Virus record (IMG/VR): IMGVR_UViG_3300046490_000065
Coordinates: 1-64,000 of that record
Reading direction: 5' to 3' (one strand)
DNA: 64,000 bases
Source of the DNA: a virus
Lineage: Duplodnaviria > Caudoviricetes
A model generated the notes under the pieces. That model saw only the letters and a program-made list of their open reading frames with translations. It did not search any database and had not been told where the DNA came from. A program made the translations under genes and the position numbers. This document shows, one piece after another, positions 1-62,977 of this stretch (its first letter is position 1; each line of letters opens with the position of its first letter).

Positions 1-544
1 CTTTGGACCAATGATCCATCGCCGCCAACTCCGGGTACATCCCGATCTGCCCCAGGAACACATCCAGTGTCGCGGCAGCATCGGCTAGAGCCCCGTGGGC
101 GCCATCGTGCTCCCGGCCGCAATACTTCCGCACCGCGTCCTCCAGCTTCTTGGGTTCCTTCTTACTGAAGATCCCGAAGCAGTCGATAACCCGAACCCCG
201 GTGAGATCGAGCTTGTGTCCGGCTCGGCGCAGTTCCTCGTCCAACATTGGAAGGTCCATGCGCCATGGGTTGTATCCGGCCAGATCCTTACCTGCTATCG
301 ATCTGGCCACCTTACCGGCGTAGTCGGCGAACAGTGGGCAGTCCTTGACGTCCTCGTCGGTGATTCCGTGGACCTCCGTTGAGGCCGGCGGAATCGGCAT
401 CTCCGGGTTGAACCGCTTGCTCCACGGCACCCTCTGTCCATCCGGGAGGTAGGCCACCATGCCTAGCTCGACGATCCGGTCATGCACCGGGTCAACCCCG
501 GTGCTTTCGATATCCAGGAATACTATAGGCCGTTCGATCTTCAC
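1..544 (-). CDS. DEDDh 3'-5' exonuclease (DnaQ/Pol III epsilon-like), runs off window start
   Basis: Manual translation from GTG at 544: IVFLDIESTG...IVELG...FNPEMPIPPASTEVHGIT...AGYN...D...HGALADAAAT, matching ExoI/II/III motifs; absent from ORF track because no stop lies in the window. Confidence 0.9.
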   Translation of the reverse strand, partial: MKIERPIVFLDIESTGVDPVHDRIVELGMVAYLPDGQRVPWSKRFNPEMPIPPASTEVHGITDEDVKDCPLFADYAGKVARSIAGKDLAGYNPWRMDLPMLDEELRRAGHKLDLTGVRVIDCFGIFSKKEPKKLEDAVRKYCGREHDGAHGALADAAATLDVFLGQIGMYPELAAMDHWSK

Positions 545-1005
545 TTGTTCCCCTTTACTCTTCGGCGCCGCTCGGCCTCCAGATCCCGCAGCGCCCGCAG
601 CCTGACCCGGCCTTGAGCTTCCCCACCATCCCAGCACCCAGACCGCTCCATGGACTCCAGTTCCGCCAACTCCTCCAGAGTCCGTATCCTCCGGCTGTAA
701 GATCCTACCTGTTCCCACCGGCCGGAGAGGTGGGCCACCACCGCAATCAAGAGTGGAACCACAATGTGGACTACTATCAGCACCGGTCTCGTCGTTGGAA
801 TCCAGTCGCTCATTTTTCTTCTCCCCTTATCACCGCCGCTAAGGCGACGATCTTCTGTTTGGCAGTGGCGTGGAGTAACAGCCAGCGCTCTGTAGTCACC
901 TTCGGCCATCCGGTAGATCGACTCCCGGCTCAACTGGGACGGGCTGCACCCCTCCAACCTGCCGGCCGCCTGAATCCGGCGTTCTTCAATCTCCAACCGG
1001 GTCAT
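541..1005 (-). CDS. hypothetical protein with one hydrophobic segment
   Basis: Start moved to ATG 1005, which overlaps the upstream stop; segment VLIVVHIVVPLLIAVVA. Confidence 0.5.
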   Translation of the reverse strand: MTRLEIEERRIQAAGRLEGCSPSQLSRESIYRMAEGDYRALAVTPRHCQTEDRRLSGGDKGRRKMSDWIPTTRPVLIVVHIVVPLLIAVVAHLSGRWEQVGSYSRRIRTLEELAELESMERSGCWDGGEAQGRVRLRALRDLEAERRRRVKGNK

Positions 1006-1205
1006 AGTATCCACCAACCCTTCACCAGTAAGACTACCGCCTGCGCCACGTTCAGGCTGATCGACGCGAGCAAGAACCACCACAACCGGCGGTCCCGCTG
1101 CTTCACATGTCGCACCTGATCCCATGCCATCCACAACTCGTCCTGCTTCCGTCGCATCGTCGAACGACTCACCACTCCTGCCATATTGTATCCTCCGGCC
1201 ATCAC
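1002..1205 (-). CDS. small hypothetical membrane protein
   Basis: Coupled overlaps with both neighbours; hydrophobic C-terminus. Confidence 0.55.
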   Translation of the reverse strand: MMAGGYNMAGVVSRSTMRRKQDELWMAWDQVRHVKQRDRRLWWFLLASISLNVAQAVVLLVKGWWIL

Positions 1206-1516
1206 GCCACCCCCATCACGTCTCTCGCCCGCAATAAACAACTCTCCGCCGTAGGAGCATGGAACGACTGCTCCAGCGCCTTATCGAAGTCCGTCCGTAG
1301 CGGAAACGGTTTACACTCCACCGGCCGATACCCTAATGTCCGCAAGTCGCTCTCCCCCATCACCGTGTACGGCCGCGTTGTCCAGCTTGGCCGGCGGATC
1401 GCAAACGTCACGCTCGTCCGTTTGTGGTGGCTAACATCCCTCACGATCCGCAGAAGGCCAGCCCCCGACTCTAGCACGTCACCCTTCTTGATGTTCTTGA
1501 TCCAGTCTGATCCCAT
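1202..1516 (-). CDS. hypothetical protein
   Basis: GGAGG SD before ATG 1516; tight operon packing. Confidence 0.6.
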   Translation of the reverse strand: MGSDWIKNIKKGDVLESGAGLLRIVRDVSHHKRTSVTFAIRRPSWTTRPYTVMGESDLRTLGYRPVECKPFPLRTDFDKALEQSFHAPTAESCLLRARDVMGVA

Positions 1517-1694
1517 TACGCCTCCTCCCGGCCAACCGCTCCTGCCTCCGTATCCCCGCCGCCAATGCCACACGAGACACCCACTGCAACCGACACCCCT
1601 CCCGCAACGCTACCTCTTTATAAGGTTGTCCCGCCCGAATCCCATCCAGTATCCGGTTCCGCCGGTTCAACTGCTCTAACCCCTTGGTAGTCAC
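1479..1694 (-). CDS. small helix-turn-helix DNA-binding protein
   Basis: RNRILDGIRAGQPYKEVALREGCRLQWVSRV has an HTH pattern. Confidence 0.6.
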   Translation of the reverse strand: MTTKGLEQLNRRNRILDGIRAGQPYKEVALREGCRLQWVSRVALAAGIRRQERLAGRRRNGIRLDQEHQEG

Positions 1695-1990
1695 ACCACC
1701 TCCCGATCCTTCTTGCGCTGCAATCGGTCGATCTCGGCCGCAATCAAGGCTCCGGCCTTCACAAGGTTACGGATCGGATCGGGCGACGGCTTCCACCAGC
1801 GAAGATCCCACGGCCACGACAATGGACGCGGGTAGTCCGAGTGCTGTATCTGGCACACCGCGTTTCCCGCATAACTCACCGCCGCCTGCGTCAGGTCTCC
1901 GAAGCGGTGCTCGTCGTCGTGCTCGGCCGTCCACCCCTCCACAGAAACCTGCCTCTCCCTTTCTGCCGATATCCTCTCGATGCCCGTCAT
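1691..1990 (-). CDS. conserved phage hypothetical protein
   Basis: AERERQ..EGWTAEHDDEH...WPW...WWKP...RNLVKAGALIAAEIDR is a motif string I recognise from phage proteins. Confidence 0.75.
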   Translation of the reverse strand: MTGIERISAERERQVSVEGWTAEHDDEHRFGDLTQAAVSYAGNAVCQIQHSDYPRPLSWPWDLRWWKPSPDPIRNLVKAGALIAAEIDRLQRKKDREVV

Positions 1991-1991
1991 G

Positions 1992-2549
1992 CTATACCAC
2001 CTCCTGTATCTCGAACCGCCACGCCCGCTCCTTCTCCATCGAGAGGGCCATCTGGACCAGCCACCTCAGATTTGTCACCGTCTCCGGCAAGCCATCCACC
2101 GGCCACAATCCCACCGGCTCATCCGTACACGTCTCCAGATTCAAGATCGCGTCCGAGAAGCAGAGGAAGTAGTGGACCTGGAACGTAACCTCTCCCGGCG
2201 TCTTCTCCGACCCGGAGATCGTCGCGAACTGGCGCCACCGCACCAACCACTCCCGCGACGGCAGACTAACGCCAGCTTCTTCCAGGAACTCCCGACGCAT
2301 CGCTTCCTCTACCCTCTCTCCTAGTTCCACCTTCCCACCAACCCCGTTCCACTTCCCAGCCTGCCACTCCGGCCGGTTCTTATGGACCAGCGCCACAGAC
2401 TCCCGATCCTCGCTGAACAGCAGCCCTACCACGTATTCGATCGTCCCACTCGGCGCTGTCGCCTGCCTGTGCTCCTGCAAATACTCCGCCACGTACTCGT
2501 CGTTCAGCCTGTCCGCCTCACCCCACCCCGCTGGTTTCGTTTCACTCAC
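1992..2549 (-). CDS. NUDIX hydrolase
   Basis: Nudix box GGKVELGERVEEAMRREFLEEAGV. Confidence 0.92.
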   Translation of the reverse strand: MSETKPAGWGEADRLNDEYVAEYLQEHRQATAPSGTIEYVVGLLFSEDRESVALVHKNRPEWQAGKWNGVGGKVELGERVEEAMRREFLEEAGVSLPSREWLVRWRQFATISGSEKTPGEVTFQVHYFLCFSDAILNLETCTDEPVGLWPVDGLPETVTNLRWLVQMALSMEKERAWRFEIQEVV

Positions 2550-4341: not shown

Positions 4342-4990
4342 GTGGCGGACAGGAACCGCCGCCTAGGGAAAGGCCGAAAGGCGCTGGTGAGCAGTAGGGA
4401 AAGTATCCCCGAACCAATCAGCCGATAGGCGGAGGATGGAAGCTGATAGTTTGCGGAGTAAAGCCCACACAAGTCCTGGATTCCCCACTGCGGGGATGAA
4501 GCGGAGAGAACGGCAAGACTAACGGCGATGGTTCTGGCAATGAGCTAAGGATCTGGGCGTAGGGTCTGGAAGCATTGACAACTGAATACCGATGGACCTG
4601 GAGAAAACCTGCGGCACACACCGTAGGGGTAATGACCACTGGCCAAACGGAGCCTGAGCGGACTAGCGAACTGAATGATCGGGTAGCTGTTAGGGCCGGC
4701 AGAGTAGAGCATGGACGGCCAAGAGACATGGCGTAGACTGCCGGTACTGGAGATAGAATCTGATCGCGGGCTGGATAGAGCACCACTGATCGTAACCCAG
4801 GTGAAGGAGATGGGCTGATAACCCATGCCGGTCCAATGTTGGACGGGCGAAAGGGATCGAGCAATGAATTGAATGGCTTGCGGGGAGTACGGGTGGAGCA
4901 CGGCTATGCCGAGGAAGCACATCCGACACTCCCCGCATGACTACCAGACGGCTGGAGAGACATACTCCAGTCGCCCGGTGGCCATAGGCC
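4342..4990 (+). ncRNA. candidate large structured non-coding RNA or long leader
   Basis: No credible ORF; purine-rich; many stems (GTGGCGG/CCGCCGC, CCGCCTA/TAGGCGG, CCTGCGG/CCGTAGG, CCGGCAG/CTGCCGG, TGCGGGGAGT/ACTCCCCGCA, GGCTGGAG/CTCCAGTC) and a GCC-GAAA-GGC tetraloop. Confidence 0.5.
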
Positions 4991-6259: not shown

Positions 6260-6401
6260 CTCAGTCCTGAGCGGGACTGTCCGGGTGCTCTGTGAACGAC
6301 AGAGCACCTCATAGGCCGCTCAGTACCACCCAAATCCGGTCCAATGTTGGACTGGCCTATCGGCTCGGGTATGGCCTAATCCGGGCTTTTTCCGCTTCCT
6401 C

Positions 6402-7784: not shown

Positions 7785-7894
7785 CTCGCAGAGGACAGCG
7801 CGTCGTGATGATGCTCTGTAATGCGGCTGGACGGTTCCAAGCCCGTCCGCATTCGGTCCAATGTTGGACCGTACTTCAACACAGGAGAACCTTG

Positions 7895-10618: not shown

Positions 10619-10887
10619 AGACTGAGCGCAACACGCCATCTATGGGGGCGAGGGTTGAGCGTGCCTTCCGCAACTCTGGCATCTATCGCAGCCTGCCACG
10701 ATCCAGCAAGGGCTGCATTCGCAAAATGCGCCGGATCAATGCCGACTTCGAGCACGGCCAGTGGTGGATCACTGACTTGCGCACTGGTGCCCAGTGGTCC
10801 GTGGATGACGCCGAAGGCAGCGAAGCTCGCGGCGTATACGATGGCTTTTGCTTCGAACGGGTGACTGAGGGGGACACTTCATGCTGA
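10612..10887 (+). CDS. hypothetical protein
   Basis: Operon packing. Confidence 0.6.
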   Translation: MLKTERNTPSMGARVERAFRNSGIYRSLPRSSKGCIRKMRRINADFEHGQWWITDLRTGAQWSVDDAEGSEARGVYDGFCFERVTEGDTSC

Positions 10888-11129
10888 AACCACTGATCGA
10901 GATGGTTTTCGGCTGCCAGCACTCACACACCACGTTCCCGATGACGCCCCGAAGGGAAGGGCCGCTCCACCGATTCCGCCGGAAGGAAATGCCAGCAATT
11001 ACCTGCCTGGACTGCGGCGCCGAGTTCGACTATGACTGGCGCCACATGAAGGTGGGCAAGAGGCGATATCCGCCAATCCATCAGCACCCCGACGTGCGTC
11101 CAACATTGGACGCCGAACGCGCATCGTAA
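10881..11129 (+). CDS. small Cys/His protein resembling an Acidobacteriota-typical family
   Basis: FGCQHSHTTFPMT...TCLDCGAEFDYDWRHMK. Confidence 0.65.
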   Translation: MLKPLIEMVFGCQHSHTTFPMTPRREGPLHRFRRKEMPAITCLDCGAEFDYDWRHMKVGKRRYPPIHQHPDVRPTLDAERAS

Positions 11130-14531: not shown

Positions 14532-14760
14532 ATCGCGCCGCCCAACCCTCAAGGAGCAGGAGCAAGCCTGCGAGATCTGGAACCTCAAACACCCAGTGGG
14601 GACGAAAGTCACCTGCCGTATGGACTCAGGCGAAGTCCGGCACACTGTGACTACATCGGAAGCTCAGATGCTCTCCGGCCATACGGCAGTTATCTGGCTG
14701 GATGGGATCAGCGGGTGTTACCTTCTGGCACGAGTGGAGGTTGATCGTGCGTCTGCATAG
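14524..14760 (+). CDS. conserved phage hypothetical protein
   Basis: WNLKHPVGTKV...TTSEAQMLSGHTAVIWLDGISGCY. Confidence 0.65.
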   Translation: MAKSRRPTLKEQEQACEIWNLKHPVGTKVTCRMDSGEVRHTVTTSEAQMLSGHTAVIWLDGISGCYLLARVEVDRASA

Positions 14761-15418
14761 CATCCTTCACGGAAGTCGGGCCAACGGTCCCGGCCTGCGG
14801 TCTGTCATTTGGACACAGGGTTGTGGCATGCAACCCCTTTGCCCCGGTTGCCAGAATCCCGCCACCCATAGTTTCAGCGGCGGTCTGGAGATCGAGCCGG
14901 AAGACTTGGCCTATCAGATCATCCGCGAGGCCGCCGATGGGACCGAGGGGATCACGATCTCTGGCGGAGAGCCGATGTCTCAGGCCGCTTCTCTCTACCG
15001 CTTCATCTGCATGATCAACGCTATTCGGCCGCAATGGGACATTGGCCTCTTCACGGGATACACGGTAACGGAGCTTCAGACCGGCCATTACGATATGCGA
15101 GAACCCTTCAGCGAGTTCGCTAATACGTTCGAGCAATCTATGGAGAACCAACGCCTCTGGAACCTGCAAATCCTTGACCGGCTTACATGGGCCGTCTTCG
15201 GGAGATTCGACTCATCGCGTCCAACGTTGGACAACCAACCGCACCATAAACTTTGCAGTAGCGCCAACCAGCACTTGATGATTTTCCAGCGCTACTGGCG
15301 TCGATGGAGTTACGACGATTTTCCTGCTCGCTCCATGGAAGTCAACATCGAACCGGATGGACTAGTAAAGATCAGCGGGTTTCCGCCGATCAAATCAACA
15401 GAAGGAGAACACGCATGA
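14747..15418 (+). CDS. radical SAM protein, NrdG/glycyl-radical activase-like
   Basis: ANGPGLRSVIWTQGC-x5-CPGC, GITISGGEP, LFTGY, SANQ. Confidence 0.85.
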   Translation: MRLHSILHGSRANGPGLRSVIWTQGCGMQPLCPGCQNPATHSFSGGLEIEPEDLAYQIIREAADGTEGITISGGEPMSQAASLYRFICMINAIRPQWDIGLFTGYTVTELQTGHYDMREPFSEFANTFEQSMENQRLWNLQILDRLTWAVFGRFDSSRPTLDNQPHHKLCSSANQHLMIFQRYWRRWSYDDFPARSMEVNIEPDGLVKISGFPPIKSTEGEHA

Positions 15419-16937: not shown

Positions 16938-17022
16938 GTTGGTCACCTCCATGACCGATGCGCCGAGCGGGCGGGTGCTGAAACACTCGCCTGCACCCTT
17001 CCATTATAACTTACTGAACCAC

Positions 17023-17082
17023 CTGTAGGCGGCTCTCGTGACAGGAGAGCCGCACGGCAGATGGCTCCGTCCAATGTTGGAG
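17023..17082 (+). promoter_or_regulatory. GTGACAG-loop hairpin, copy 2, followed by the 14-bp palindrome
   Basis: GCGGCTCTC-GTGACAG-GAGAGCCGC ... GCAGATGGCTC ... GTCCAATGTTGGA. Confidence 0.65.
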
Positions 17083-17608: not shown

Positions 17609-17882
17609 GACCTACCGTTACCGCGTCACCCAGACCCTAGACATCGAGATCGGCAAGGCCGACCCTGTTAAGGCGGCTGAACTGGCCAGAAAGATCCAAC
17701 TGGATCCGCTGACCGAGGCCCGCTTCGCAGTGGAGATGCAGGGACCGTGCCCTAATTGCCACTGTTACGCTGTTCACCGGACACGCTGTAGCATTGCCAA
17801 GAAGCAGGGATGTGCCGCCGTTGACCTATCTACCAACGTCACCGTCACGGTCGAGTATAAGGACACCCCCGATGCAGGTTGA
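17601..17882 (+). CDS. hypothetical Cys/His protein
   Basis: CPNC...HRTRC. Confidence 0.55.
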   Translation: MAKTYRYRVTQTLDIEIGKADPVKAAELARKIQLDPLTEARFAVEMQGPCPNCHCYAVHRTRCSIAKKQGCAAVDLSTNVTVTVEYKDTPDAG

Positions 17883-20827: not shown

Positions 20828-21209
20828 CGACATCATCCACCATAATGCGCTCTGCGCCAAGTGCGGTTGCTCTCAGACGTTGCCTGTTGAGATACAGGAG
20901 TGTACGTGCCCATGCCACCCCGATGGCCAGGGATCCCGCGAATACAGGGCAGGCTACCGTGGACCCTTCTCGGAAGACGTCATGGCGCACCAGCGGGAGA
21001 TGAACCGTATCCAGTCCGGCGTAAACGAGATCAGTCCAACATTGGACCGGATCCACGCTGCCGACACTGAACTTCTCGATTGGTTACAGGAACAGATAGT
21101 AGACACCATCTATCTGGATGACGGCCGAATCATCGATGTTTGCGGCGGCAACTTGCGGGTTGCTATCGCCGTTGCAAAAGCCAAAAACCCGTCGCAAGAA
21201 ACCTCTTGA
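20823..21209 (+). CDS. hypothetical protein
   Basis: ORF in operon; CTCPCH. Confidence 0.55.
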   Translation: MDDIIHHNALCAKCGCSQTLPVEIQECTCPCHPDGQGSREYRAGYRGPFSEDVMAHQREMNRIQSGVNEISPTLDRIHAADTELLDWLQEQIVDTIYLDDGRIIDVCGGNLRVAIAVAKAKNPSQETS

Positions 21210-22510: not shown

Positions 22511-22559
22511 CCGGTCCAACATTGGACCAGACTTTGCAACAACAGGAGCAACAGAAGCT

Positions 22560-24477: not shown

Positions 24478-24544
24478 CATCTGTAGGTGGCGCTCGTGAC
24501 AGGAGCGCCACGTCAGCAGATGGCTCAACAGTCCAATGTTGGAC
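24478..24544 (+). promoter_or_regulatory. GTGACAG-loop hairpin, copy 3, followed by the 14-bp palindrome
   Basis: CATCTG..GTGGCGCTC-GTGACAG-GAGCGCCAC..CAGATG..GTCCAATGTTGGAC. Confidence 0.65.
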
Positions 24545-27075: not shown

Positions 27076-27076
27076 T

Positions 27077-27433
27077 ATGGGCTTCCGCGACCGAAGCTCT
27101 GCCGGCCGCTCGTCGATCGTGCCTTTCGTCCCCGGTGAAGATTCCGGGGACCGGCACGACCGGAGGCTCTCCGCCAATCTGTGTGATGAGAACGACGCGC
27201 GGGCCGCCGCTAAGGCGATCGGGTTGGTGCTGAAGATTGCTAACGACGGCCATCACTGGATGTTCACCAGCCCAGGGTTTGTTGCCGACTGGTGGCCGTC
27301 ATCCGCCAAACTGGTGTTCAACAAGGAGTTCAGAAGAGGCGTTCACTGCCATGACTGGCAGCAGGCGCTACAAGAGATTGAGAAGCGACTGATCGCGTCC
27401 AACGTTGGACGCAAGGAGACTCCCTGTGGATAG
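27077..27433 (+). CDS. hypothetical protein
   Basis: NDGHHW...DWWPSSAK. Confidence 0.6.
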   Translation: MGFRDRSSAGRSSIVPFVPGEDSGDRHDRRLSANLCDENDARAAAKAIGLVLKIANDGHHWMFTSPGFVADWWPSSAKLVFNKEFRRGVHCHDWQQALQEIEKRLIASNVGRKETPCG

Positions 27434-28435: not shown

Positions 28436-30264
28436 TGTTCCCCTCCCTTTTCTTCTGCGTAGACAAGAAGCATTCTTTTGACCTTTCCGAATGCCTGCGC
28501 TCCAACGGCATCCGCGTCTATCCCCTCACCGAGGACACCCCACCGGATCAGCGCAAGCGGTTCGTGCGGCTGTTTAAGGAGGGGGAGATAGATGGCTTGG
28601 CTTCATGTGGCGTGATTGATGAAGGCTTCGACGCCCCTAACGCAGTGGGGGGTTTTCACTGCGCCCCAACTAAGTCGGGGCTCCGCTACCGGCAGAGGGC
28701 AGGTAGGATCTTGCGGCCGTACCCAGCGCCGCAAGGAGAGCGCCTCTATCAGAAGGCCGCTCTCCACGGCATCTGGAATCATCTGAAACAGGGGGTCATC
28801 AACCAGCTTGTTGTGATGCCGACCGGCACGGGTAAGACCCGAATGGCTGCCCAAGTACCCAAGGTGATCAAGCACTGGAGGGAGAAGGCGGGGAAGGCCC
28901 GGCGCGGCCGTCTTCTGTTTCTCGTCCACCGGGAGGAACTGGCGCTGCAAACCGCCGATACCTTCCGCGAGCACACTGACATGACAGTGGGAGTGGAGAA
29001 GGCTGGATCCTACGCTGGTGATGCTGACGTCGTAGTGGGTAGCGTGCAGACCCTTGGCCCGGCCAAGTACGAAGACCTAGGGGGCGGCGAGGGGAGGTGG
29101 GAGTACAACTCCCGGCTGGCCTCTCTGCGGCCTGAGGACTTCGACTGCATCATAACCGACGAGGCCCATCACTTCAAGGGCAAGTTTTATAACCAGATAC
29201 TCCGGCGCATGCACGCGCTCAAGGGGGAACCAGACCGAGACCCGGACATCCTCAGCCTATTCATCACGGCGACTCCTAACCGTGCGGACAACGTTGGTAT
29301 GGAGGCGGTCTGCGATGCCCTTGTCTACGAATATGGGATCGTACAGGCGACGAAGGACGGCTACTTGGCGCCGCTCCACGCCTTCCGCTGCGAAACTACT
29401 GTGGACCTATCCGAACTGAAGACCCGCATGGGGGACTTGGAGCCAGAGAAACTATCCAAATTGGTCAATATCCCCGAGAGAAATATGCTGGTCGCCCGCG
29501 AGTACCTTCGGATACGGGATATGATCGCTCCGGACTTCGCGTCCAACGTTGGACCAGTCAAACCGTACTGTGTGCTGGTCGATTTCGTAGACGCGACCGG
29601 CCGCCATTCACTCATCTCCGCCCCGCAACTGTACGGCCTCCGTGAAAAGTTCGACCCGAAGGGTGCCAACGTCTTAGAGCAGGCGGCGGAGATCGACTCT
29701 ATCCAGGCAGCCAACCCCGGCCTGGACCTCCGCGAGGCCACCGACTTGGAAGATGCCAAGCGCCGGGCGGATGCCTACAAGACCTCCCTGCAAAAGCTGG
29801 ACCTCCTCAATCCATCGATCCCGAACGCCCTGCGCCACCTGTCCAAGATGACCTGGGTGGCGGAAGCGGCCGGCTCCTACCGACTGGGACTCATGGATGG
29901 CTCCATGCTCACCGTGCGGGAGGATGCCCTGGGTGGGTTCGAGGTGAACCGCCATGTGCGCGGGGTGAAGACGAAGCTCTACGCAGCCAAAGACCTGCCC
30001 CAGGCGATCAGCTTGGCCGAGAAGGAGATCCCGCCCAGTGACAAGCGGGTGCTGGCGGCCGATGCGGGGTGGAGGACAGAACCACCCACAGACAAGCAGT
30101 GCAGTAGGTTAATCGTAATCGATCGGCACTACAACCACCAGTTCCATGGGAACATGAAGGCTCTGTACACCTACGTTCTTGCCCGATACACCGCTGGCGA
30201 CCCTTTATTCTCCAGGGGAGGAATTGCCGACAGGATGAATCGAATCGACGCCAAGCGAAGGTAA
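28435..30264 (+). CDS. SF2 (ResIII/Irc3-like) DEAH helicase with motifs IV-VI moved to the N-terminus
   Basis: LFFC, DEGFDAP and QRAGRILR precede PTGTGKT, HREEL, DEAHH and TATP. Confidence 0.88.
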   Translation: MFPSLFFCVDKKHSFDLSECLRSNGIRVYPLTEDTPPDQRKRFVRLFKEGEIDGLASCGVIDEGFDAPNAVGGFHCAPTKSGLRYRQRAGRILRPYPAPQGERLYQKAALHGIWNHLKQGVINQLVVMPTGTGKTRMAAQVPKVIKHWREKAGKARRGRLLFLVHREELALQTADTFREHTDMTVGVEKAGSYAGDADVVVGSVQTLGPAKYEDLGGGEGRWEYNSRLASLRPEDFDCIITDEAHHFKGKFYNQILRRMHALKGEPDRDPDILSLFITATPNRADNVGMEAVCDALVYEYGIVQATKDGYLAPLHAFRCETTVDLSELKTRMGDLEPEKLSKLVNIPERNMLVAREYLRIRDMIAPDFASNVGPVKPYCVLVDFVDATGRHSLISAPQLYGLREKFDPKGANVLEQAAEIDSIQAANPGLDLREATDLEDAKRRADAYKTSLQKLDLLNPSIPNALRHLSKMTWVAEAAGSYRLGLMDGSMLTVREDALGGFEVNRHVRGVKTKLYAAKDLPQAISLAEKEIPPSDKRVLAADAGWRTEPPTDKQCSRLIVIDRHYNHQFHGNMKALYTYVLARYTAGDPLFSRGGIADRMNRIDAKRR

Positions 30265-38899: not shown

Positions 38900-39197
38900 T
38901 CCGTGTTCGTGCTGCAAGAAGACTAACCAGTTTTGCCGTTGCACCCGCGAAGTTTGTGGCAAGTGCCACCAGTGTTCAGTCCACTGCGAGTGCTTCAACC
39001 CAACGTTCAGTCCAACGTTGGACTCAGTGCGTGAGCCGGAAGGCGACCGTGGCATCTGCCGGGCGCCAGAGTGCCGAGCGGTGATCTGGTGGCAGGTTAC
39101 CGCCAAAGGGAAGCGTACGCCGGTCAACGCCGATGGATCGCCACACTGGGCGGATTGTCCGGCGGCTAAGTCATTTTCGAAAAGGAGAACGAAGTGA
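38883..39197 (+). CDS. Cys-rich Zn-binding protein
   Basis: Multiple CxxC; HWADCP. Confidence 0.6.
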   Translation: MTKTTSPCSCCKKTNQFCRCTREVCGKCHQCSVHCECFNPTFSPTLDSVREPEGDRGICRAPECRAVIWWQVTAKGKRTPVNADGSPHWADCPAAKSFSKRRTK

Positions 39198-41600: not shown

Positions 41601-42088
41601 AACTCAGCATGGCAGAGCGCATAACGGGACTTGAGATCCTGGAGATCCCCCGGATCGGCAAGAAGATCGGGACGGCCGTCACCTACGCTGCCTACGATGA
41701 CGGGGTTGAGGTGATCCGCCGCACGGAGTCCGGACACTCCGCCACATTGTCGGCCGTGGTGGAGGTGCTCTACAAGAGGACCAGCCGTCGAGTGTTCGAG
41801 GAACAAAGTTTCTTGTGCTTCGTTTGCGGGCGGCTGCGCCCACTTCAAGCGGACCACATCCACCCACGGGCGCGTGGACGGTGTGACCAGCGATGGAACT
41901 TGCGTGGGGTATGTGCCGAAGACCATCAACTCATAACAGACAACAAGCTGGTGGACCCGCAGCCTCATCCGAAGGTGCTGTCGGCCGTCCAGCGGCATGG
42001 GTGGACCTGGGAGCCGGATTCCAATGTTGTTGGCTGGCACCAACTGATCGAGAGTCCAACGTTGGACGCGGTGGAGGCAACGGCTTGA
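41597..42088 (+). CDS. HNH endonuclease
   Basis: CFVCG...ADHIHPRARG...NLRGVCAEDH. Confidence 0.8.
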   Translation: MKLSMAERITGLEILEIPRIGKKIGTAVTYAAYDDGVEVIRRTESGHSATLSAVVEVLYKRTSRRVFEEQSFLCFVCGRLRPLQADHIHPRARGRCDQRWNLRGVCAEDHQLITDNKLVDPQPHPKVLSAVQRHGWTWEPDSNVVGWHQLIESPTLDAVEATA

Positions 42089-43533: not shown

Positions 43534-43871
43534 GAGATCGAGTACGCGCACGGCTGGACGGTTTGGCCGAGCGTCAGGCCCAACGGGATGCGGCGCGGGC
43601 GTGGGTAAACCGGAAGGCTCGTGTGCTTACCGCCAAGTACGATGGGTTGCTGACGGAACTGGACGCGACGAGGGCCGTCCTGGAGGCTCTCGACACCACC
43701 TGGGTAGAAGAGAAGGTCTATGGAATGACACTAATTGCTACCGACACCGGGTTGCTGTTGGCGTACTCCCCCGGCGGGGTGTTGGACCGTCCGACCAGCC
43801 GACTACTCCACCCTCACCACTTCCAGGAGTCTCTGTTTACTCATCTGCCGGATTTGCCTGGAAGGATATAG
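43521..43871 (+). CDS. hypothetical protein
   Basis: Last rightward ORF, convergent with the virion operon. Confidence 0.5.
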   Translation: MGRLRDRVRARLDGLAERQAQRDAARAWVNRKARVLTAKYDGLLTELDATRAVLEALDTTWVEEKVYGMTLIATDTGLLLAYSPGGVLDRPTSRLLHPHHFQESLFTHLPDLPGRI

Positions 43872-50976: not shown

Positions 50977-51921
50977 CTACTTCACCTCGCGTCCAACGGA
51001 CTCCAGCACCTTCACCCGCTCTGTCAACTCCAGCACGAGACCATGCAGTTCCTTTGCAGCCTGAAGTGCCACGGCGGATAACATTGCGTAGTCCACCCCC
51101 AGTGTGTCCTTGCCAAACTGGTAGATCGCCTGTGGAAAGGCCGGCTGGATCTCCTGTGCGATCACCCCGATGTGCTCACCACTCTGGAGGCTTGCTTCGG
51201 GGATGTACTCGAACGTGACTGGTTGAATAGCGGTGAGTTTCTCCAGCACACCCGAGATCGCGGCAATGTTCTTCTTTAACTGTCGGTCACTGCCGCCAGT
51301 TAGCCCTTTTATACCCGCTGTTGCCGCTCCACCAGCGGCTCCCACAAGATCCCCCACGACCCCTAGCTTGGCTGCCTGCTGCTGGGTGGCGGATGCCAAG
51401 TTCGACTGGTTCGTAGTGGATGCCCCACCGTACCCACTGAGCGAGGCACCAAGCTCCTGGAGGCTGAATGCGCCCACCCCGCTCCCGATATTGGCCAAGA
51501 TCTCCGGAGCGTTCTCCACTGACTGGGCCATTGCCTGGGCCGGTGCCACCGACTTCTGGACCTCCAAGTTAGCGAGGGCGGTATCCCGCGCCGCGCCGGG
51601 AGCGACGGAGTTGAACACGCTCTGCTTCGCCCCCTCGTATCCGCTTGAGATCTTAGAGATAGTCGGCATCGCCGCCGCGAGTGCAGCATTTCGGTCTCCA
51701 CTCGCGAGTGCCGTCTCTTTGGCAATTAGGGGAGCTTGCAGCGCTTCTGCTTTGGCCTTATCCTCCGTCGATGCCGTCTGCTGCTGCTGCGCAAGGTTGA
51801 GTTGCTGCTGGGTGATCTGAGAATTGGTGGACATCGCCGTCTTCTCGGCGCTGGAAGGGCCACACAGGAGCGTTGAAAGCCTGGAGACGTATCCCCAACG
51901 GCGGAACTCGGTATAGTTCAT
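50977..51921 (-). CDS. pilot/ejection-type protein with C-terminal peptidase S74 autochaperone domain
   Basis: Ala/Gln-rich body; SDRQLKKNI...GVIAQEI...VDYAML. Confidence 0.8.
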   Translation of the reverse strand: MNYTEFRRWGYVSRLSTLLCGPSSAEKTAMSTNSQITQQQLNLAQQQQTASTEDKAKAEALQAPLIAKETALASGDRNAALAAAMPTISKISSGYEGAKQSVFNSVAPGAARDTALANLEVQKSVAPAQAMAQSVENAPEILANIGSGVGAFSLQELGASLSGYGGASTTNQSNLASATQQQAAKLGVVGDLVGAAGGAATAGIKGLTGGSDRQLKKNIAAISGVLEKLTAIQPVTFEYIPEASLQSGEHIGVIAQEIQPAFPQAIYQFGKDTLGVDYAMLSAVALQAAKELHGLVLELTERVKVLESVGREVK

Positions 51922-52508
51922 TTATTCCCCCAACTCTCTTCCGTCAGCACAGACAAGTACCCGGCACACTCCACTCCCCGCCAGCAACACAACCCAGGGA
52001 TCGGCCCGAACGAGGTGAACCCAGATGCCTTCATGAACCGCACAGCCGGGACGTTCTTCTCCGGGGTTATCCCGTAGATGGCATCCATTGAGCATTCATT
52101 GAAGGCGAAGTCTAGCAGCGCTTTCCCCATGTCGAGAGTGATACCCATCGCTTGGTATTCCCGCCAGAACACCTCACCCACGTCCGCGTAACGGCAACCG
52201 TTCCTGGTCTTGATGTTGTGAAGCCAGCCCAACCCGGCCAGCGTGATTACTGGCGGCGCGTCCAATGTTGGACCGGGAGTTTCTAAAAAGCACCCGGCCA
52301 CAATGATGTTGGGTTGTTCGCACCATTCGAGAAACCCTCGAAGATCAGGGGGTTTATCCCAGAACATCATGGGCAACAACCCCTCCTGTTCCATCCGCAG
52401 GTAAGCTACAGCCAGCAGGCTTTGTCCGATTTCGGATCGGATCTTGATCGCTCGTTGTTCCGCTACCATATCAGACACGAGTGTACCCCTTAACACTCTA
52501 CAACGCAA
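51918..52508 (-). CDS. GNAT-fold protein in virion module
   Basis: AIYGITPEKNVPAVRFMKASGF; such genes occur between tail and ejection genes in podoviruses. Confidence 0.7.
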   Translation of the reverse strand: MRCRVLRGTLVSDMVAEQRAIKIRSEIGQSLLAVAYLRMEQEGLLPMMFWDKPPDLRGFLEWCEQPNIIVAGCFLETPGPTLDAPPVITLAGLGWLHNIKTRNGCRYADVGEVFWREYQAMGITLDMGKALLDFAFNECSMDAIYGITPEKNVPAVRFMKASGFTSFGPIPGLCCWRGVECAGYLSVLTEESWGNK

Positions 52509-57365: not shown

Positions 57366-60300
57366 CTACCGTAACCTAGTCATATTCATACCACTAGCGG
57401 TTGTGCTTCCGCCGTTGGCGTTCAGTGGTCCTCCACTGTTCTGGAACGCTTGGCACACGAAATACTCCCCGCCCGACACTCCTCCGTAAGATTGCACCAT
57501 CGCCGTTGCCATTATTTGCTGTGAGTTACTTAGATCAGAGTTCGCCGGATACTGTTGAAGGGCGACATACTGTCCATTGCTTGGGGACGCCCCTAAGCGC
57601 TGAATCCCAACGCCGCGCGTGCCTGTAGCGTTGGGGGAGAACCTCACCCAGCAACTCAGAAGATACATCCCCCCACTAGGGGCTCCACCTGCTCCTGCAT
57701 CCGCCACGGGGGTCGCAAAACGATCTGTGTTGGCCGATGTGCTATGAATTCCGAAGTCGTATACGTTCGTGTCCCAAAGTATGTTGGTCCACGCGTTGTT
57801 AGGCACGCTCCAGGTGGCCGATGATGAGTACGCAAAACTACGAAACTGCTGTGCAGAATCCAAGGTGTTGTTGTTGTTCGTCCCGAACACAATGACTTGA
57901 TCGTTCGCCGTCTGCCCGCAGGTTTGGAAGTTCCGGATGATGTTGTCGTGATCGCCGGAGAACAGGATGATCCCCTGCCCAGAGTTGCCACAGACGTACG
58001 CACCATCAATTAAATTAAATTCATTGTCCTGGCTCGAAAACCATACCCCCTCGCTGTTCTTGTTGTCGAGCGCAACCACGTTTTTGAACTGGTTTTTATA
58101 GCTTCCCTGCGAGATCGCTAAACCGTTGGCTGATGCCCTATTAGCGGTGACGTTCACAAAACTGCCGTAGGCAGTGGCAGCGAGCTTGATGGCCCTCCCA
58201 ACGTATACCTGTCCAGCGGACTGGACGAGAACGTTACTTACTTGCGGAAACACATTCTGCGCGAACTGGATGCCAAATCCAGACGCGTTGATTACCCGCA
58301 GGTTGCTGGCTTGCAGGTTGGTTTGGCTATAAAGAGAGATGGAATCGTACCCTCCGCTACCGGAGTTGTAGGTCTCCACGTTGGTGACCGAGTTCTCGTA
58401 CCCGGCTGCCATCATCAGTCCGGCCGATGCTACCCAGTTCCGAAAATAAACATCGTTAATCCGGCAGTAAGATACATAGCTCAGCAGCACGCCATAAAAC
58501 TGGTTGGCATTGGACCGGTTGTATCCGATGCCGCCGCCGTCCAACACCAACCCCTCAATCACGATGTGGGAGACAGGATTGAGCTTGGAAATCGAGTGCG
58601 ATCCTAGTGTGTTATCGAGGGGAATGACGATAGGGTCGCGAAAGGTGACCGCTGGAGCGGAAATTGCCGAAATCGTGTTGAACTGAACAAAAACATTCCC
58701 ATAGGTGGCCTCGATCCCTGAGAACAGATCCACTACATCGCCAACGGCGTAGCCGGCAGTAGAGGTGAAGTTGATCGTATCGGTGACGATGTTCGCGCGG
58801 TTTGAGAAAGCCAAATTCGTGGCTGTTGTGGTGCTGTTGGTCAGGGTCCCTATTGCCGAAATGAGCGGCACGTACGGCGTGGCTGGTGATAGCGTGATGA
58901 TCGACTGGCGGGATGCTCCGTGCAAGTAAAAGCCGCTCGGCAACTGCATGATGGGTCCGTGTGCGGCGTAGCTTCCAGCGGTGACATACACCTCGTTTAC
59001 ACCTGCTGCAATAGCGGCGCTGATCGCTTCGCTGATCCCACTATCGTTAGACTGGACAGTGTATCCTGCTGAATGTGAGTTACTGGCCGAGAACGTGATG
59101 GACCCAATGGGGGATCCAGAGGTGCATGTTCCGCCCGTGATCTGAACCGCCTCTGGACCCATAGACAAAGACCCACCGGAGGTATACGCCCCAAAACCTT
59201 GGGAACCGATTAACGACACGGTGGACCCACTCACGGTTATCAAGTAGGCTCCATTGGCGTTCAGATTGCCGCCAACTCCGGACACTATGACCAAGTTCCC
59301 GGTGATCAAACCGGCAGTGTTGTTGAGCGTTAAGACAATGGGGGTTGTGTTGCTGGCCGCACTGACTGTCTTAACCACCGGCCCGGATGCGCCCGAAACG
59401 TACACCCAATGGTTTCCGTCTGTGCCATTAACCCCCACGGGGCATGGTGTTAGCGTGATGGTATTTGGCCCGATGGATACAGTACCATACGGGGTCTGCG
59501 ACCAAGCGATAGGCGTAAAATAAGGCAATTGTCCTGCCCCTCCTCCACCACCTGATGACGCTTGAAAACTAGGATCAGCACTGGGGCCGTTAGACGTGAG
59601 CACAAAACCGGTGGTTCCCGGAGAGACCAATGTGACCGGTGAGGCCCCCTCTGCGACGAGCACCCCGTGGGCAGTCGGGTTGGCCACCCCGGTACCACCC
59701 TTGGTCGCCGGCAGAGTCCCCGTGGCCCCCCCGTTCACAGCGCTCGTTAGATCCACTGACGACATATTAGACCCCGGCAGAGTGCCGGTGATCGCGGCGG
59801 GTTGGCTAAGGTCAACCGGGCCAACCGTAGGGGTACCCCCCGCCCCCGCCTGAAATACTTGGTACTGTGATCCGGCGGACGTTACTCCGGTATTCCCAAA
59901 TCCATTGCCGAACAAAATTCCATTAAGCGTCTGTGAGGTCAACCCTGTGCATCCCTGGGCCACCGAGCAGGGGAACGTCACCGCTCCGGAAGCCGTGCTT
60001 AACGGCAAACTATTCTGCCCAGCATACTTCACCACCGCGTTACCCGTTATTGAGATATTGACAAATGAGGCAGGGGAAGTGTACATATCAGCGCCAAAAG
60101 CTACTGCTGGATTGCTGATCTGGCTAATCGTAGCCGTTGCTCCATAGCTCGACCATGGTCCAGTGCATGCCACGTTTGAGTACCGGATGGTGACGGACCA
60201 ACTCCCCGTACCAGACGCCACCACAGAGTGATACCAATTCCTTCGGGAAGACGCGGAACGGTTGTCGATCGTGCCCGCGCACCCAGTCCCTTCGCCGGGC

Positions 60301-60416
60301 CACGACGAGTTGATGCCAGGAATCGAGGTGACTTGCATCGACACCTTGGTGGATTGGGCGAACGCCCCAAAGCAGAAAGCGGATAGAGCCAAGATCGCAG
60401 TTTTCATAAATGTCAT
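57366..60416 (-). CDS. tailspike-like protein with right-handed beta-helix and N-terminal signal peptide
   Basis: MKTAILALSAFCFGAFAQ; ISEAISAA...VYVTAGSY...LHGAS; IEGLVLDG. Confidence 0.75.
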   Translation of the reverse strand: MTFMKTAILALSAFCFGAFAQSTKVSMQVTSIPGINSSWPGEGTGCAGTIDNRSASSRRNWYHSVVASGTGSWSVTIRYSNVACTGPWSSYGATATISQISNPAVAFGADMYTSPASFVNISITGNAVVKYAGQNSLPLSTASGAVTFPCSVAQGCTGLTSQTLNGILFGNGFGNTGVTSAGSQYQVFQAGAGGTPTVGPVDLSQPAAITGTLPGSNMSSVDLTSAVNGGATGTLPATKGGTGVANPTAHGVLVAEGASPVTLVSPGTTGFVLTSNGPSADPSFQASSGGGGGAGQLPYFTPIAWSQTPYGTVSIGPNTITLTPCPVGVNGTDGNHWVYVSGASGPVVKTVSAASNTTPIVLTLNNTAGLITGNLVIVSGVGGNLNANGAYLITVSGSTVSLIGSQGFGAYTSGGSLSMGPEAVQITGGTCTSGSPIGSITFSASNSHSAGYTVQSNDSGISEAISAAIAAGVNEVYVTAGSYAAHGPIMQLPSGFYLHGASRQSIITLSPATPYVPLISAIGTLTNSTTTATNLAFSNRANIVTDTINFTSTAGYAVGDVVDLFSGIEATYGNVFVQFNTISAISAPAVTFRDPIVIPLDNTLGSHSISKLNPVSHIVIEGLVLDGGGIGYNRSNANQFYGVLLSYVSYCRINDVYFRNWVASAGLMMAAGYENSVTNVETYNSGSGGYDSISLYSQTNLQASNLRVINASGFGIQFAQNVFPQVSNVLVQSAGQVYVGRAIKLAATAYGSFVNVTANRASANGLAISQGSYKNQFKNVVALDNKNSEGVWFSSQDNEFNLIDGAYVCGNSGQGIILFSGDHDNIIRNFQTCGQTANDQVIVFGTNNNNTLDSAQQFRSFAYSSSATWSVPNNAWTNILWDTNVYDFGIHSTSANTDRFATPVADAGAGGAPSGGMYLLSCWVRFSPNATGTRGVGIQRLGASPSNGQYVALQQYPANSDLSNSQQIMATAMVQSYGGVSGGEYFVCQAFQNSGGPLNANGGSTTASGMNMTRLR

Positions 60417-60456
60417 CGTCCAACATTGGACGATTCATTGTACCGCGTTGAAAGGA

Positions 60457-61206: not shown

Positions 61207-61862
61207 TAGGCCCCCTTCCCTTCAGCGACTTCCAACTGCTTGGCCACGAAGTACTGGGGGAATACCAGACCCTCCCAGATCACCATATCCCGGATTTCGT
61301 TTATGAACCGCTGGTACGAAACACTGGCAGACGCGAACGGCTTACCCCCTAATTTCATCATTATCCGACCCCGGCAGTAGTCGATGAGCGTGGGCACTTG
61401 GTCGTCGTCGAGATCCACAGTGTCGCCCGGATTGACCATGGGGGTTATCGTGGACACCCCGTTCACCTCTATCAGTCGGCCGCCCACCGCATCCATCGGG
61501 TGAATCACGAACTGGTCAATCCCTATCGGCGCCCATCGCGCCATCGGGCCGGCCGATGCCGTGGTGTCCGTCGCCCAGTTCCGGAACTGCGTGCCCAACT
61601 GGTTGAGGCTGTACTTCTCAAGTTCGATCCCTTCCACGTATAGCTTGAGCGGGAAGATCATTCCGGCCGCCATTGGGTAGACCAACTGGTTCCCTTGGGT
61701 AACCATTGGGAGAAGCTCCTCCACAATGCCCGTGAGGAAGTTGATTTTTTTTACCGCGTTGTTGAGCACTTGGGTTACTTGCGCTTGCGGGAACATTCCC
61801 ACGTTGCCGTCTAATTGGTCGTACAACAATCCAGACAGGACGCTTAGGGTGTACGAAGGCAT
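61206..61862 (-). CDS. head-tail adaptor-like protein
   Basis: LYDQL...VLNNA...FVIHP...LIDY; same pattern as neighbour. Confidence 0.65.
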   Translation of the reverse strand: MPSYTLSVLSGLLYDQLDGNVGMFPQAQVTQVLNNAVKKINFLTGIVEELLPMVTQGNQLVYPMAAGMIFPLKLYVEGIELEKYSLNQLGTQFRNWATDTTASAGPMARWAPIGIDQFVIHPMDAVGGRLIEVNGVSTITPMVNPGDTVDLDDDQVPTLIDYCRGRIMMKLGGKPFASASVSYQRFINEIRDMVIWEGLVFPQYFVAKQLEVAEGKGA

Positions 61863-61907
61863 TCTACCCACCTTGACTTTTGCGTTTCATTATGCAAACA
61901 TTTATCA

Positions 61908-62075
61908 ATGGACGCAAACAAGATAGAGACGGTGGCTTTCCGAATCGACCCAGCGACCAAAGCCATCCTACAGGAAATAGCGAGAGCCAACGATATGACC
62001 CTCGGAGCCGTCATCAGGACAGCGGTCAAAGGAGCAATCAAGAACAAATGGATCAGCTTGAAACCCAATCGCTGA
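61908..62075 (+). CDS. ribbon-helix-helix (CopG/Arc-like) protein, 55 aa
   Basis: Manual translation MDANKIETVAFRIDPATKAILQEIARANDMTLGAVIRTAVKGAIKNKWISLKPNR; not in ORF track. Confidence 0.75.
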   Translation: MDANKIETVAFRIDPATKAILQEIARANDMTLGAVIRTAVKGAIKNKWISLKPNR

Positions 62076-62488
62076 ACAAACCCTGCCTCCACTGTAAGCT
62101 CACCAAGTCGCTTGTAGAGTTCAACCGAGACTGTAGACAAAAGGACGGTCGTTCGTACTATTGCAGGGGATGTCGGTCGGCCATCCGAAAGGCTGCCTAC
62201 AATCCGATCCGGGAGCGATGGCACAACCTCTATCGACATTACGGAGTTACAGAGGAAGCATTCAATCTGATGGTTAACCACCAGAGGAACTCGTGCAGAA
62301 TCTGTCGTAAATTGTTTGGTACCGCCTCTTCTAATCGACCTAACGTTGACCACTGCCACACCTGCGGAAAGATTAGAGGGCTCCTGTGCCAGCACTGCAA
62401 CCAAGGGATTGGGGTAGTACGCGAAAATCAATCCACGTTGGCCGCAATTAGAGATTTCTTGATCCGAGTTCACCGCCCAGGAGAGTAA
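62048..62488 (+). CDS. endonuclease VII-domain protein 1
   Basis: CLHC...CRGC...YGVT...CRIC...VDHCHTCGKIRGLLCQHCNQGIG. Confidence 0.9.
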   Translation: MDQLETQSLNKPCLHCKLTKSLVEFNRDCRQKDGRSYYCRGCRSAIRKAAYNPIRERWHNLYRHYGVTEEAFNLMVNHQRNSCRICRKLFGTASSNRPNVDHCHTCGKIRGLLCQHCNQGIGVVRENQSTLAAIRDFLIRVHRPGE

Positions 62489-62923
62489 ATGGACCAGACT
62501 AAAATATGCACAGTATGCCGGCGGATTCTGCCAGTTGTGGAATTCTACCGAGATAGACGAATGTCCCTCGGCGCCCGAAGTGATTGCAAAATGTGCACGC
62601 TTCAGCGCATTGCAGACAGAGGAAAGACAGACGATGGAATACGGGCTACACGTTCCAAAAACCTCAAATCGCACTACGGGATCAGCCGTGAGAGATACGA
62701 CAAACTCCTTGCTTCTCAAGGGGGGGTATGCGCCGCATGTGGAAATCCTCCGGGGGACCCTGCTGGAAAGAGGTTCCATAACCTTGAAGTTGACCACTGT
62801 CATTCTTCGCTTGAGATCCGAGCATTGCTCTGCTGGAGGTGCAACATAACCATTGGTCATTTCATGGAAAGCGTCGATGCTGTCGAGTCGGCAATCGAAC
62901 ATTTGGAACAGTGCTCCCACTAG
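62489..62923 (+). CDS. endonuclease VII-domain protein 2
   Basis: CTVC...CKMC...YGIS...QGGVCAAC...VDHCH...RALLCWRCN. Confidence 0.9.
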   Translation: MDQTKICTVCRRILPVVEFYRDRRMSLGARSDCKMCTLQRIADRGKTDDGIRATRSKNLKSHYGISRERYDKLLASQGGVCAACGNPPGDPAGKRFHNLEVDHCHSSLEIRALLCWRCNITIGHFMESVDAVESAIEHLEQCSH

Positions 62924-62977
62924 ATGCGTCCAACGTTGGACGGGGCGATGTCCGCCGGGCGCCGCCCCTCCATCGGG

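Follow-up and report, generated by a model that had tools for sequence, protein, structure and literature searches.

The IncP plasmid RK2 has 12 OB sites, short palindromes scattered, with about one per 3–5 kb, through a mobile genome tens of kilobases in size, some of them at promoters and others at a distance. The protein that reads them, KorB (1r71, 8qa8, 8qa9), is a cytidine triphosphate (CTP) clamp: it can slide as far as 1.5 kb away from its operator and thereby silences promoters (PMC11790492). KorB works with a ParA protein (IncC) and the clamp-locking KorA. Here, we analyze a similar arrangement in a Caudoviricetes phage (IMG/VR record IMGVR_UViG_3300046490_000065), where a 14-bp palindrome, GTCCAA-YR-TTGGAC, recurs across the first 64 kb of the record (hereafter, the window) and beyond, and where an orphan protein of the ParB/Noc/KorB family, P0001, is the predicted reader. 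KorB with its dispersed OB operators is the closest functional model of this system, and the 34-copy palindrome of the Cluster O mycobacteriophages is the closest published phage case.

Noc of Bacillus subtilis (7ol9) is, like P0001, an orphan ParB paralog that does without ParA; its parS-derived palindrome occupies many dispersed, often intragenic sites, about one per 60 kb, and Noc tethers the DNA to the membrane by an N-terminal amphipathic helix. Unlike the protein analyzed here, Noc acts on a bacterial chromosome. The ParABS systems involve the same protein family and the same site architecture, but have a ParA and an origin-near cluster of sites, in contrast to the 29 dispersed sites of this phage. 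Among the phages, Corndog (Cluster O) carries 34 invariant copies of the 17-bp TGTTCGG-N3-CCGAACA, located between open reading frames (ORFs), near their ends or inside them, in an apparently non-temperate genome of ~70 kb; the authors proposed no reader and judged the ParB-like protein unlikely to be involved in genome stability (Cresawn 2015, PMC4351075). The L5 stoperators, ~30 copies of a short word across the phage genome that are read by a single phage protein (gp71), are asymmetric, oriented with transcription, confined to short intergenic spaces and recognized by the immunity repressor of a temperate phage (PMC4351075).

P0001 resembles KorB in combining an N-terminal nucleotide-switch domain, a helix-turn-helix and a C-terminal domain, and the sites are dispersed in the KorB–OB manner, with one of the 29 located 13 nt upstream of a −35 element, seven in 5′ leaders and the rest in genes. 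However, the replicon is a phage without sign of lysogeny, the site sequence is different and many sites are intragenic; no ParA was found, and no KorA-like partner was identified (a systematic search for a second repeated operator was not made). The dispersed dyad, with many copies inside ORFs or near their ends, and the non-temperate genome are features of Cluster O that recur here (PMC4351075), and Corndog and this phage both encode a ParB-like protein, a beta clamp and an AAA ATPase, whereas the word and the host group differ and no homology was detectable in the tests made; unlike in the Cluster O case, the link to ParB is argued here from the fold, the likeness of the site to parS and the lineage variants. 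The asymmetry of the L5 type is absent: the site is a perfect palindrome, and its center shows no strand bias (TG at 11 and CA at 8 sites on the sense strand).

A dispersed word under selection at the DNA level

The record is a single contig of 94,628 bp with 58% G+C, complete according to CheckV (100%). A search with the pattern GTCCAANNTTGGAC, with one mismatch allowed, yields 22 sites in the window, 19 exact and 3 with a single mismatch (239, 17069 and 34817); these are the positions listed in a preliminary description of this DNA, which also quoted the centers (CG 8, CA 7, TG 7 and TA 0) and the extensions of the symmetry into the flanks correctly. The complete genome contains 25 exact and 4 one-mismatch copies, i.e. 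29 sites or about one per 3.3 kb, and the center is always CG, CA or TG, the site form GTCCAACGTTGGAC being accompanied by forms with TG and CA centers. In 100 dinucleotide shuffles of the window, the mean number of copies is 0.15 and the maximum is 2, compared with the 22 found, and Markov models of orders 1–5 predict at most 0.013 copies per center variant. The half-site GTCCAA occurs 54 times in the genome, with ~28 occurrences within full sites, and the number of isolated half-sites is close to the base-composition estimate.

The comparison with a codon-aware background that the preliminary description had proposed was made by shuffling synonymous codons in 115 ORFs, with the proteins and the codon usage preserved. 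Across 300 shuffles, the mean is 0.05 motifs and the maximum is 1, compared with 18 copies observed in these ORFs. The motif encodes all eight SN[VI]G and 10 of the 13 P[TM]LD tetrapeptides in this set; the reading frames at the coding sites are SNVG, PTLD and PMLD, as first described, and the VQxWT frame is unused in every ORF with a good coding signal. Thus, the word is under strong selection at the DNA level, which was the original interpretation, and the SNVG- and PTLD-type peptides exist because the DNA word is there, not the reverse. A literature search found no paper on the exact word.

Even spacing and low-cost placement

The genome-wide distribution of the word noted in the preliminary description is also an even one. 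The coefficient of variation of the gaps between the 29 sites is 0.54, compared with 0.95 for random placement, with none of 20,000 simulations as even, and the smallest gap is 818 bp (P = 1.5e-4). The two widest gaps, 6.7 and 8.2 kb, correspond to the block of very large virion genes.

Genes were called crudely, from the longest ORF and a codon score, so that the placement counts are approximate: ~10 of the 29 sites are outside ORFs with coding signal, ~8 are within ~15 codons of an ORF end and ~11 are mid-gene, for example, at residue 470 of the SF2 helicase and twice in a 645-amino acid (aa) protein. About two-thirds of the sites are in coding sequence, and about eight window sites are intergenic (4831, 6339, 7856, 17069, 22514, 24531, 60418 and 62928), in agreement with the number given initially. 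Seven intergenic sites lie 6–17 nt upstream of a Shine–Dalgarno sequence, and the site at genome position 83128 (L118:19128), in the tRNA region, is 13 nt upstream of the −35 element of a TTGACT-N18-TAGACT promoter. Overall, the sites are evenly distributed and located where the coding cost is low, which suggests two joint pressures, for a site every few kilobases and for placement at the least cost.

At two gene starts (window positions 17020–17082 and 24480–24544), the palindrome is part of a composite cassette that consists of a GC hairpin with a GTGACAG loop, CAGATGGCTC, the palindrome and a Shine–Dalgarno sequence.

Seven sites are separated by a short, constant distance from the ribosome-binding site that follows them, an arrangement that recurs in the HMO-2011-type phages discussed below and could also reflect a role of the word in RNA, where a 5-bp stem with a 4-nt loop in mRNA leaders and bodies would serve as a processing, stability or translation signal. 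The predicted hairpin has an energy of −4.9 kcal/mol, and GTCCG-N4-CGGAC, found at the same place in phage HMO-2011, keeps the stem through an A–T to G–C change. However, this hairpin is weak and lacks a U-tract, and the symmetry of the word extends through positions 6–9, which are unable to pair in a hairpin. Furthermore, both TG and CA centers occur on the sense strand and the HMO-2011 loop is found in both orientations, so that there is no single conserved RNA loop, and at least 15 sites are in coding sequence, several of them mid-gene, where cleavage or a roadblock would be costly. An RNA role is, therefore, unlikely, and we give it little weight.

An orphan protein of the ParB/Noc/KorB family

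P0001 is encoded beyond the window (Table 1), in a gene that has a TTGACT promoter-like element of its own and probably starts at a GTG near 92821. The protein matches PHROG 1033 ‘ParB-like partition protein' (E 9e-13) but, when searched alone, scores only E 0.02 against PF02195; most of its ~60 homologs have PF02195. A search of IMG/VR with P0001 alone gave no match, whereas an alignment-based search did find homologs. The profile of 31 homologs matches the structures of M. xanthus ParB, Noc and Caulobacter ParB with E values from 1e-7 to 8e-5, along with Srx structures, and this family profile aligns in register with the ParB and Noc structures at the Q-x-R, G-x-x-R and E-N motifs as well as at the helix-turn-helix; Q50, R52, G98, R101 and N133 are invariant in the 31 homologs. 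For the AF2 model of P0001 (pLDDT 81), the top Foldseek matches, spanning 160–170 residues, are ParB-CDP (6sdk), ParB-CTPgS (7bm8), Noc-NBS (7ol9) and KorB (8qa9), so that Noc structures are among the best matches in both sequence and fold. The helix-turn-helix directly follows the N-terminal domain, with LTQEALAQRLGKGQSTIAN of the P0001 family aligned in register with DKDLARLVGCSQSLIAD of Noc, and is itself followed first by a basic linker and then by a C-terminal domain with two helices and three strands. Thus, P0001 belongs to the ParB/Noc/KorB family, with a canonical ParB helix-turn-helix between the nucleotide-switch domain and the C-terminal domain.

By eye, the N-terminus of P0001 contains no LG(R/K)GL-type ParA-interaction peptide, and the complete genome has no match to ParA (PF13614), which all control genomes match; a tyrosine integrase is not matched in the complete genome either. 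Directly downstream of the P0001 gene, on the minus strand, there is an ORF with an RyR domain (PF02026, E 6e-12; genome 91564–91929, L119:7564-7929).

The preliminary description had named three potential binders, two of which (40457–41188 and 1479–1694) have no family match, whereas the third (61908–62075) has only a weak ribbon-helix-helix match; Pfam scans of ~70 further ORFs identified no other clear sequence-specific DNA binder. Nevertheless, a different dimeric phage protein, either this ribbon-helix-helix-like one (RHH_1, E 0.002) or one of the many without an assigned function, might read the array as a stoperator-like or global repressor, with P0001 in another role. The seven intergenic sites 6–17 nt upstream of Shine–Dalgarno sequences and the one 13 nt upstream of a −35 element would fit this possibility, as would the apparent use of the word as an operator in HMO-2011-type phages that lack ParB and in a prophage with a CI-type repressor. 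Against it stand the score of the match, which is below the Pfam cut-off, and the fact that ribbon-helix-helix proteins usually read short repeats rather than 14-bp perfect palindromes. More generally, most of the sites are intragenic and evenly spaced, neither of which promoter-bound repressors need, and the word is parS-like, with variants that track the ParB lineages. We consider a different phage-encoded reader to be rather doubtful; the stoperator-like option raised in the preliminary description retains some probability, but, in contrast to the L5 stoperators, the sites show symmetry and few of them are at promoters.

Likeness to parS and variant arrays in related lineages

The core consensus of parS is GTTTCACGTGAAAC, and the canonical parS is TGTTTCACGTGAAACA. 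The word described here agrees with the core at 8 of the 14 bases, with the outer GT..AC and the central ACGT retained, and GTCCCACGTGGGAC of the relatives, whose general site form is GTCC[A/C]ACGT[G/T]GGAC, agrees at 10 of the 14, so that the initial statement that the word does not match parS is not supported. In its architecture, a 14-bp perfect palindrome with an ACGT center and GT..AC ends, the site resembles parS.

The phage lacks a cultured relative: when 11.6 kb were compared with 50,697 phage records by megablast, there was no match, and the best DnaB match is 34% identical. Related arrays are found, however, in relative contigs with virion genes up to 83% identical at the amino acid level, and the P0001 homologs, where found in these relatives, are 41–49% identical. 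Every related lineage that has this ParB, five diverged lineages in all, carries its own variant array. The variants include GTMCMACGTKGKAC in the lineage of G003 and G114 (18 in 66 kb, with none in the reversed control), GTCCAAC-AT-GTTGGAC, with two additional central bases, in the G112 lineage (4 in 18.8 kb), RTCCAMCGTTGGAN in the P0011 contig (L120; 6 in 10 kb, ~2 kb apart) and GTCCAACGTTGYAC in the P0028 lineage (L121/L122; 5 in 20 kb), and the recognition helices of ParB differ among these lineages. In three lineages (L121, L122, L124 and L125), a site lies 10–30 nt upstream of the parB start; in L120, there is a site within the linker-coding part of parB, and the homolog P0012 has SNVG in its linker. 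A more divergent case is G111 (IMGVR_UViG_3300033072_000999; L267), a 55-kb viral contig whose ParB is a distant member of the P0001 subfamily with a different recognition helix; it contains nine dispersed copies of TGTCAT-N3-ATGACA (control 0).

Among the 27 genes common with G003, three have sites in both genomes, two only in this phage and four only in G003; the site ahead of the 1016-aa gene is positionally conserved. Thus, as the preliminary description had suggested checking, sites move among homologous genes while the density is retained. By tblastx, 4 of the 29 sites are inside alignable segments, and none of these four is conserved in position.

Three further observations concern these relatives and ParB loci at large. 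In G112 (IMGVR_UViG_3300037563_000046; L256; sites at 3232, 6013, 11685 and 15874), the half-sites are two bases further apart, which is unexpected for a rigid dimer. A perfect canonical parS is present at L120:386-401, in a 104-kb contig of a relative with a degenerate array and an orphan ParB, and may be a borrowed host centromere site. Finally, a general rule that ParB implies a dispersed palindrome was not established: exact palindromes were found at 3 of 73 loci, compared with 0 of 32 and 1 of 101 in the controls, and relaxed palindromes showed no difference.

The same word in other phages and in bacteria

The scan of IMG/VR also retrieved ~50 contigs with 38–44% G+C and clusters of 2–8 copies of the word spaced by 300–1000 bp, which are podophages of the HMO-2011 type. 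Roseobacter phage CRP-1 (L116, MK613343) has four exact copies, at 429, 1059, 2228 and 6868, and the word is also present in the HMO-2011-type contigs L069, L076, L018, L026, L033 and L034. In these phages, it is located in early-gene leaders, ~20 nt past a −10-like box and 8–10 nt before the Shine–Dalgarno sequence, with one copy inside the first gene, gp01, which represents a 200-aa family without known function; here, the word is read as SNVG in a linker. Puniceispirillum phage HMO-2011 (L117; 61, 1262 and 1927) lacks both gp01 and the 14-mer, and contains GTCCG-N4-CGGAC, in both orientations, at the equivalent places. When all ORFs were compared with CRP-1 and HMO-2011 using phmmer, only ThyX was matched.

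A relation between gp01 and ParB or KorB is a lead only, based on weak signals. HHalign comparison of the gp01 and ParB families gave a probability of 0.5% over 31 columns, leaving the link unsupported, and the gp01 model had no Foldseek match; with VIA-align, the KorB DNA-binding domain on its operator (1r71) was the best of 48,161 chains for this model, with a Z of only 5.2. Pfam KorB matched 1 of 31 members (E 0.099), whereas with HMMER 19 of 41 members aligned in one register with positions 149–240 of the ParB profile (E <0.01), in part through a low-complexity linker; the aligned region comprises the end of the helix-turn-helix, the linker and the C-domain.

In Pseudoalteromonas sp. 0303 (L214:3254-3390), three exact copies spaced by 61–62 bp are located between a Phage_CI_repr gene and a 196-aa ORF, in what looks like the operator cluster of a prophage immunity region. 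The word is, then, used by more than one kind of element, and its sharing may be a coincidence, given that there are only a few thousand possible half-sites.

Among the matches listed from a scan of 185,579 species genomes, single scattered copies come from all phyla, and five of the listed genomes contain 1–5 copies per 4–12 Mb. The Solirubrobacterales metagenome-assembled genome MFD03346.bin.3.59 (G026) has five exact copies in 4.6 Mb, well above chance, which may represent a chromosomal site system. In 81 genomes of Rhodobacteraceae, the count is 0–1 each, with one copy in 4 of the 81, close to the reversed control pattern. The density of the word in the phage is several hundred times that in the bacterial genomes searched, so that, in these genomes, the word does not behave as a HIP1-like host repeat, the alternative named in the preliminary description; the phage's own host was not identified.

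Unrelated phages and a small number of bacterial loci, including the Solirubrobacterales genome, contain the identical word, which might indicate that a host protein reads the sites and that the phage hijacks a host organizer or regulator. The 81 genomes of Rhodobacteraceae, the family to which the known hosts of the word-carrying roseophages belong, nevertheless show no excess over the control, and the word changes from one phage lineage to its close relatives, which is what a reader encoded by the phage would predict. A host reader appears very improbable.

Other genes and DNA modification

The window encodes a small N6_Mtase-domain protein, two radical-SAM proteins, ThyX and a Nudix protein (Table 1), a combination that hints at nucleotide or DNA modification chemistry. 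The word could serve as a self-mark that is recognized by an enzyme involved in DNA modification, nicking or restriction, with the N6-adenine methylase (17794–18657; E 8e-9) as one candidate; the presence of the two radical-SAM genes would fit this possibility, and the CG, CA and TG centers, to the exclusion of TA, would fit the decay of methylated CpG. In phages, proteins of the ParB fold frequently act together with DNA-modifying enzymes or form fusions with them (PMC12704722, PMC13229309), and a phage ParB without a DNA-binding domain activates thymine dioxygenase, a known client of phage ParB (PMC13229309). However, the 287-aa methylase has no recognizable target-recognition domain, and no match to a C5 methylase, a PF01555 (N4/N6) methylase or a Tet/JBP-type thymine dioxygenase was detected in the complete genome. 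The known phage modification motifs are 2–4 bases long (PMC13229309), and evenly spaced sites at one per 3.3 kb would protect almost nothing. Modification as the purpose of the array is, accordingly, highly improbable.

Table 1. Copies of the palindrome in the window, and selected genes (window coordinates unless marked as genome)
Feature	Coordinates	Strand	Context
One-mismatch site GTCCAACATTGGAA	239..252		Within DEDD/RNase_T exonuclease ORF 2-718 (minus strand)
Exact site	4831..4844		ORF-poor divergent region, between leftward arm (to 3976) and rightward arm (from 5007)
Exact intergenic site	6339..6352		~50 nt upstream of TTGACT −35-like hexamer
Exact intergenic site	7856..7869		Behind GC hairpin, 14 nt upstream of GGAG-N7-ATG
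Exact site, PTLD	11098..11111		Final 10 codons of ORF 10881-11129
Exact site, PTLD	15219..15232		Within radical-SAM/Fer4_12 ORF 14702-15418
One-mismatch intergenic site	17069..17082		Cassette: GTGACAG-loop hairpin, CAGATGGCTC, site, 8 nt, AGGAG, ATG
Exact site, PTLD	21034..21047		ORF 20823-21209, directly ahead of beta-clamp-like gene
Exact intergenic site	22514..22527		4 nt past stop of 21140-22510; 17 nt upstream of GGAG of gene starting at 22560
Exact site	24531..24544		Hairpin-CAGATGGCTC cassette; 7 nt upstream of GGGGGAG and probable GTG start of second radical-SAM gene
Exact site, SNVG	27397..27410		Final 12 codons of ORF 26984-27433
Exact site, SNVG	29541..29554		Mid-gene, residue 470 of SF2/ResIII helicase 28132-30264
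Exact site, SNVG	33999..34012		Residue 11, N-terminal hydrophobic leader of collagen-repeat protein 32071-34044 (minus strand)
One-mismatch site GTCCGACGTTGGAC, SDVG	34817..34830		Residue 118 of ORF 34464-35318
Exact site, PMLD	36599..36612		Residue 256 of ORF 35833-37212
Exact site, PTLD	39010..39023		ORF 38787-39197, between DnaB and ThyX genes
Exact site, PTLD	42054..42067		Final 11 codons of HNH-like ORF 41576-42088
Exact site, SNVG	44346..44359		Residue 472 of 645-aa ORF 43837-45774 (minus strand), Pro/Gly-rich stretch
Exact site, SNVG	45552..45565		Residue 70 of 645-aa ORF 43837-45774
Exact site, PTLD	52260..52273		Residue 79 of ORF 51918-52508 (minus strand)
Exact intergenic site	60418..60431		Abuts start of 1016-aa gene 57366-60416 (minus strand); site also present at this position in relative G003 (23893)
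Exact intergenic site	62928..62941		Directly upstream of ORF 61844-62920 (minus strand)
P0001, orphan ParB/Noc/KorB-family gene	Genome 91931-92896	minus	Beyond the window
55-aa ORF, weak ribbon-helix-helix (CopG; RHH_1)	61908..62075	+	E 0.002, below Pfam cut-off; rival reader
Small N6_Mtase-domain ORF, 287 aa	17794-18657		E 8e-9; no recognizable target-recognition domain
Radical-SAM/Fer4_12 ORF	14702-15418		
Radical-SAM/Fer4_12 ORF	24487-25059		
ThyX	39194-39868		
Nudix ORF	1992-2549		

Proposed mode of action and confidence in the assignment

The orphan ParB-family protein P0001 is the predicted reader of the 29 sites, which would form a site array of the KorB/Noc kind; we put the probability of this assignment at roughly 60%. 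A dimeric reader of a parS-, NBS- or KorB operator-like site, which the preliminary description had proposed, is still the best explanation, whereas the claimed mismatch to parS and the binders named there are not supported. By analogy with KorB, Noc and ParB, P0001 dimers would load at the palindrome via the helix-turn-helix and then close into nucleoside triphosphate-dependent clamps that slide for about a kilobase. Given the KorB reach of 1.5 kb and the density of one site per 3.3 kb, P0001 could access the whole chromosome. The likeliest output would be KorB-like genome-wide control of transcription or organization of the phage DNA during infection. With neither a ParA nor any sign of lysogeny, a role in partition is unlikely.

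Several observations weigh against this assignment. The 14-mer is present in HMO-2011-type roseophages without a detectable P0001-type ParB (the profile has no match in 20 HMO-type records, 3 of them complete) and in the Pseudoalteromonas prophage, so that the word is not ParB-specific and P0001 is a candidate reader only; about half of the ORFs of this phage have no assigned function, and an unrecognized reader is, accordingly, possible. In the P0001 family, GERR is replaced by GFHR (F for E) and ENLQR by ENGHH (H for R), which makes CTP binding and hydrolysis by this family uncertain. There is no site at the P0001 promoter in this genome. As for the comparative evidence, the spacing of the sites in the relatives is not significantly even, the co-occurrence of ParB and the array in the relatives is not independent evidence because most of the genes are common, and the 73 ParB-bearing viral loci show no general excess of dispersed palindromes over controls.

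A more far-reaching and tentative version of the P0001 assignment, one we regard as unlikely, is that the ParB clamp covers the chromosome of a virulent phage as a self-mark or organizer, for example, a condensate or shield against the host nucleoid and nucleases or a device for early-to-late timing, rather than acting at ordinary operators; in this version, a DNA-reading module without the clamp may correspond to gp01, as the early-gene repressor of the HMO-2011-type roseophages. If the part on gp01 is true, a single site–reader pair would have been put to two different uses, one as a local operator and the other as an array across the genome.

Implications

The plasmid-style arrangement of dispersed sites has hardly been described for phages. 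Orphan proteins of the ParB fold are common in phages, their roles being unexplored according to a 2025 survey (PMC12704722), and the dispersed palindromes of Cluster O have been without a reader since 2015 (PMC4351075). The genome analyzed here offers a clean, testable pair, with one ParB-family gene, 29 near-identical sites and natural variants in five related lineages. If the pairing of P0001 with the array is true, plasmid-style control of the KorB type or chromosome marking of the Noc type would extend to virulent phages, and the DNA targets of a large protein family could be identified by a simple, purely sequence-based rule.

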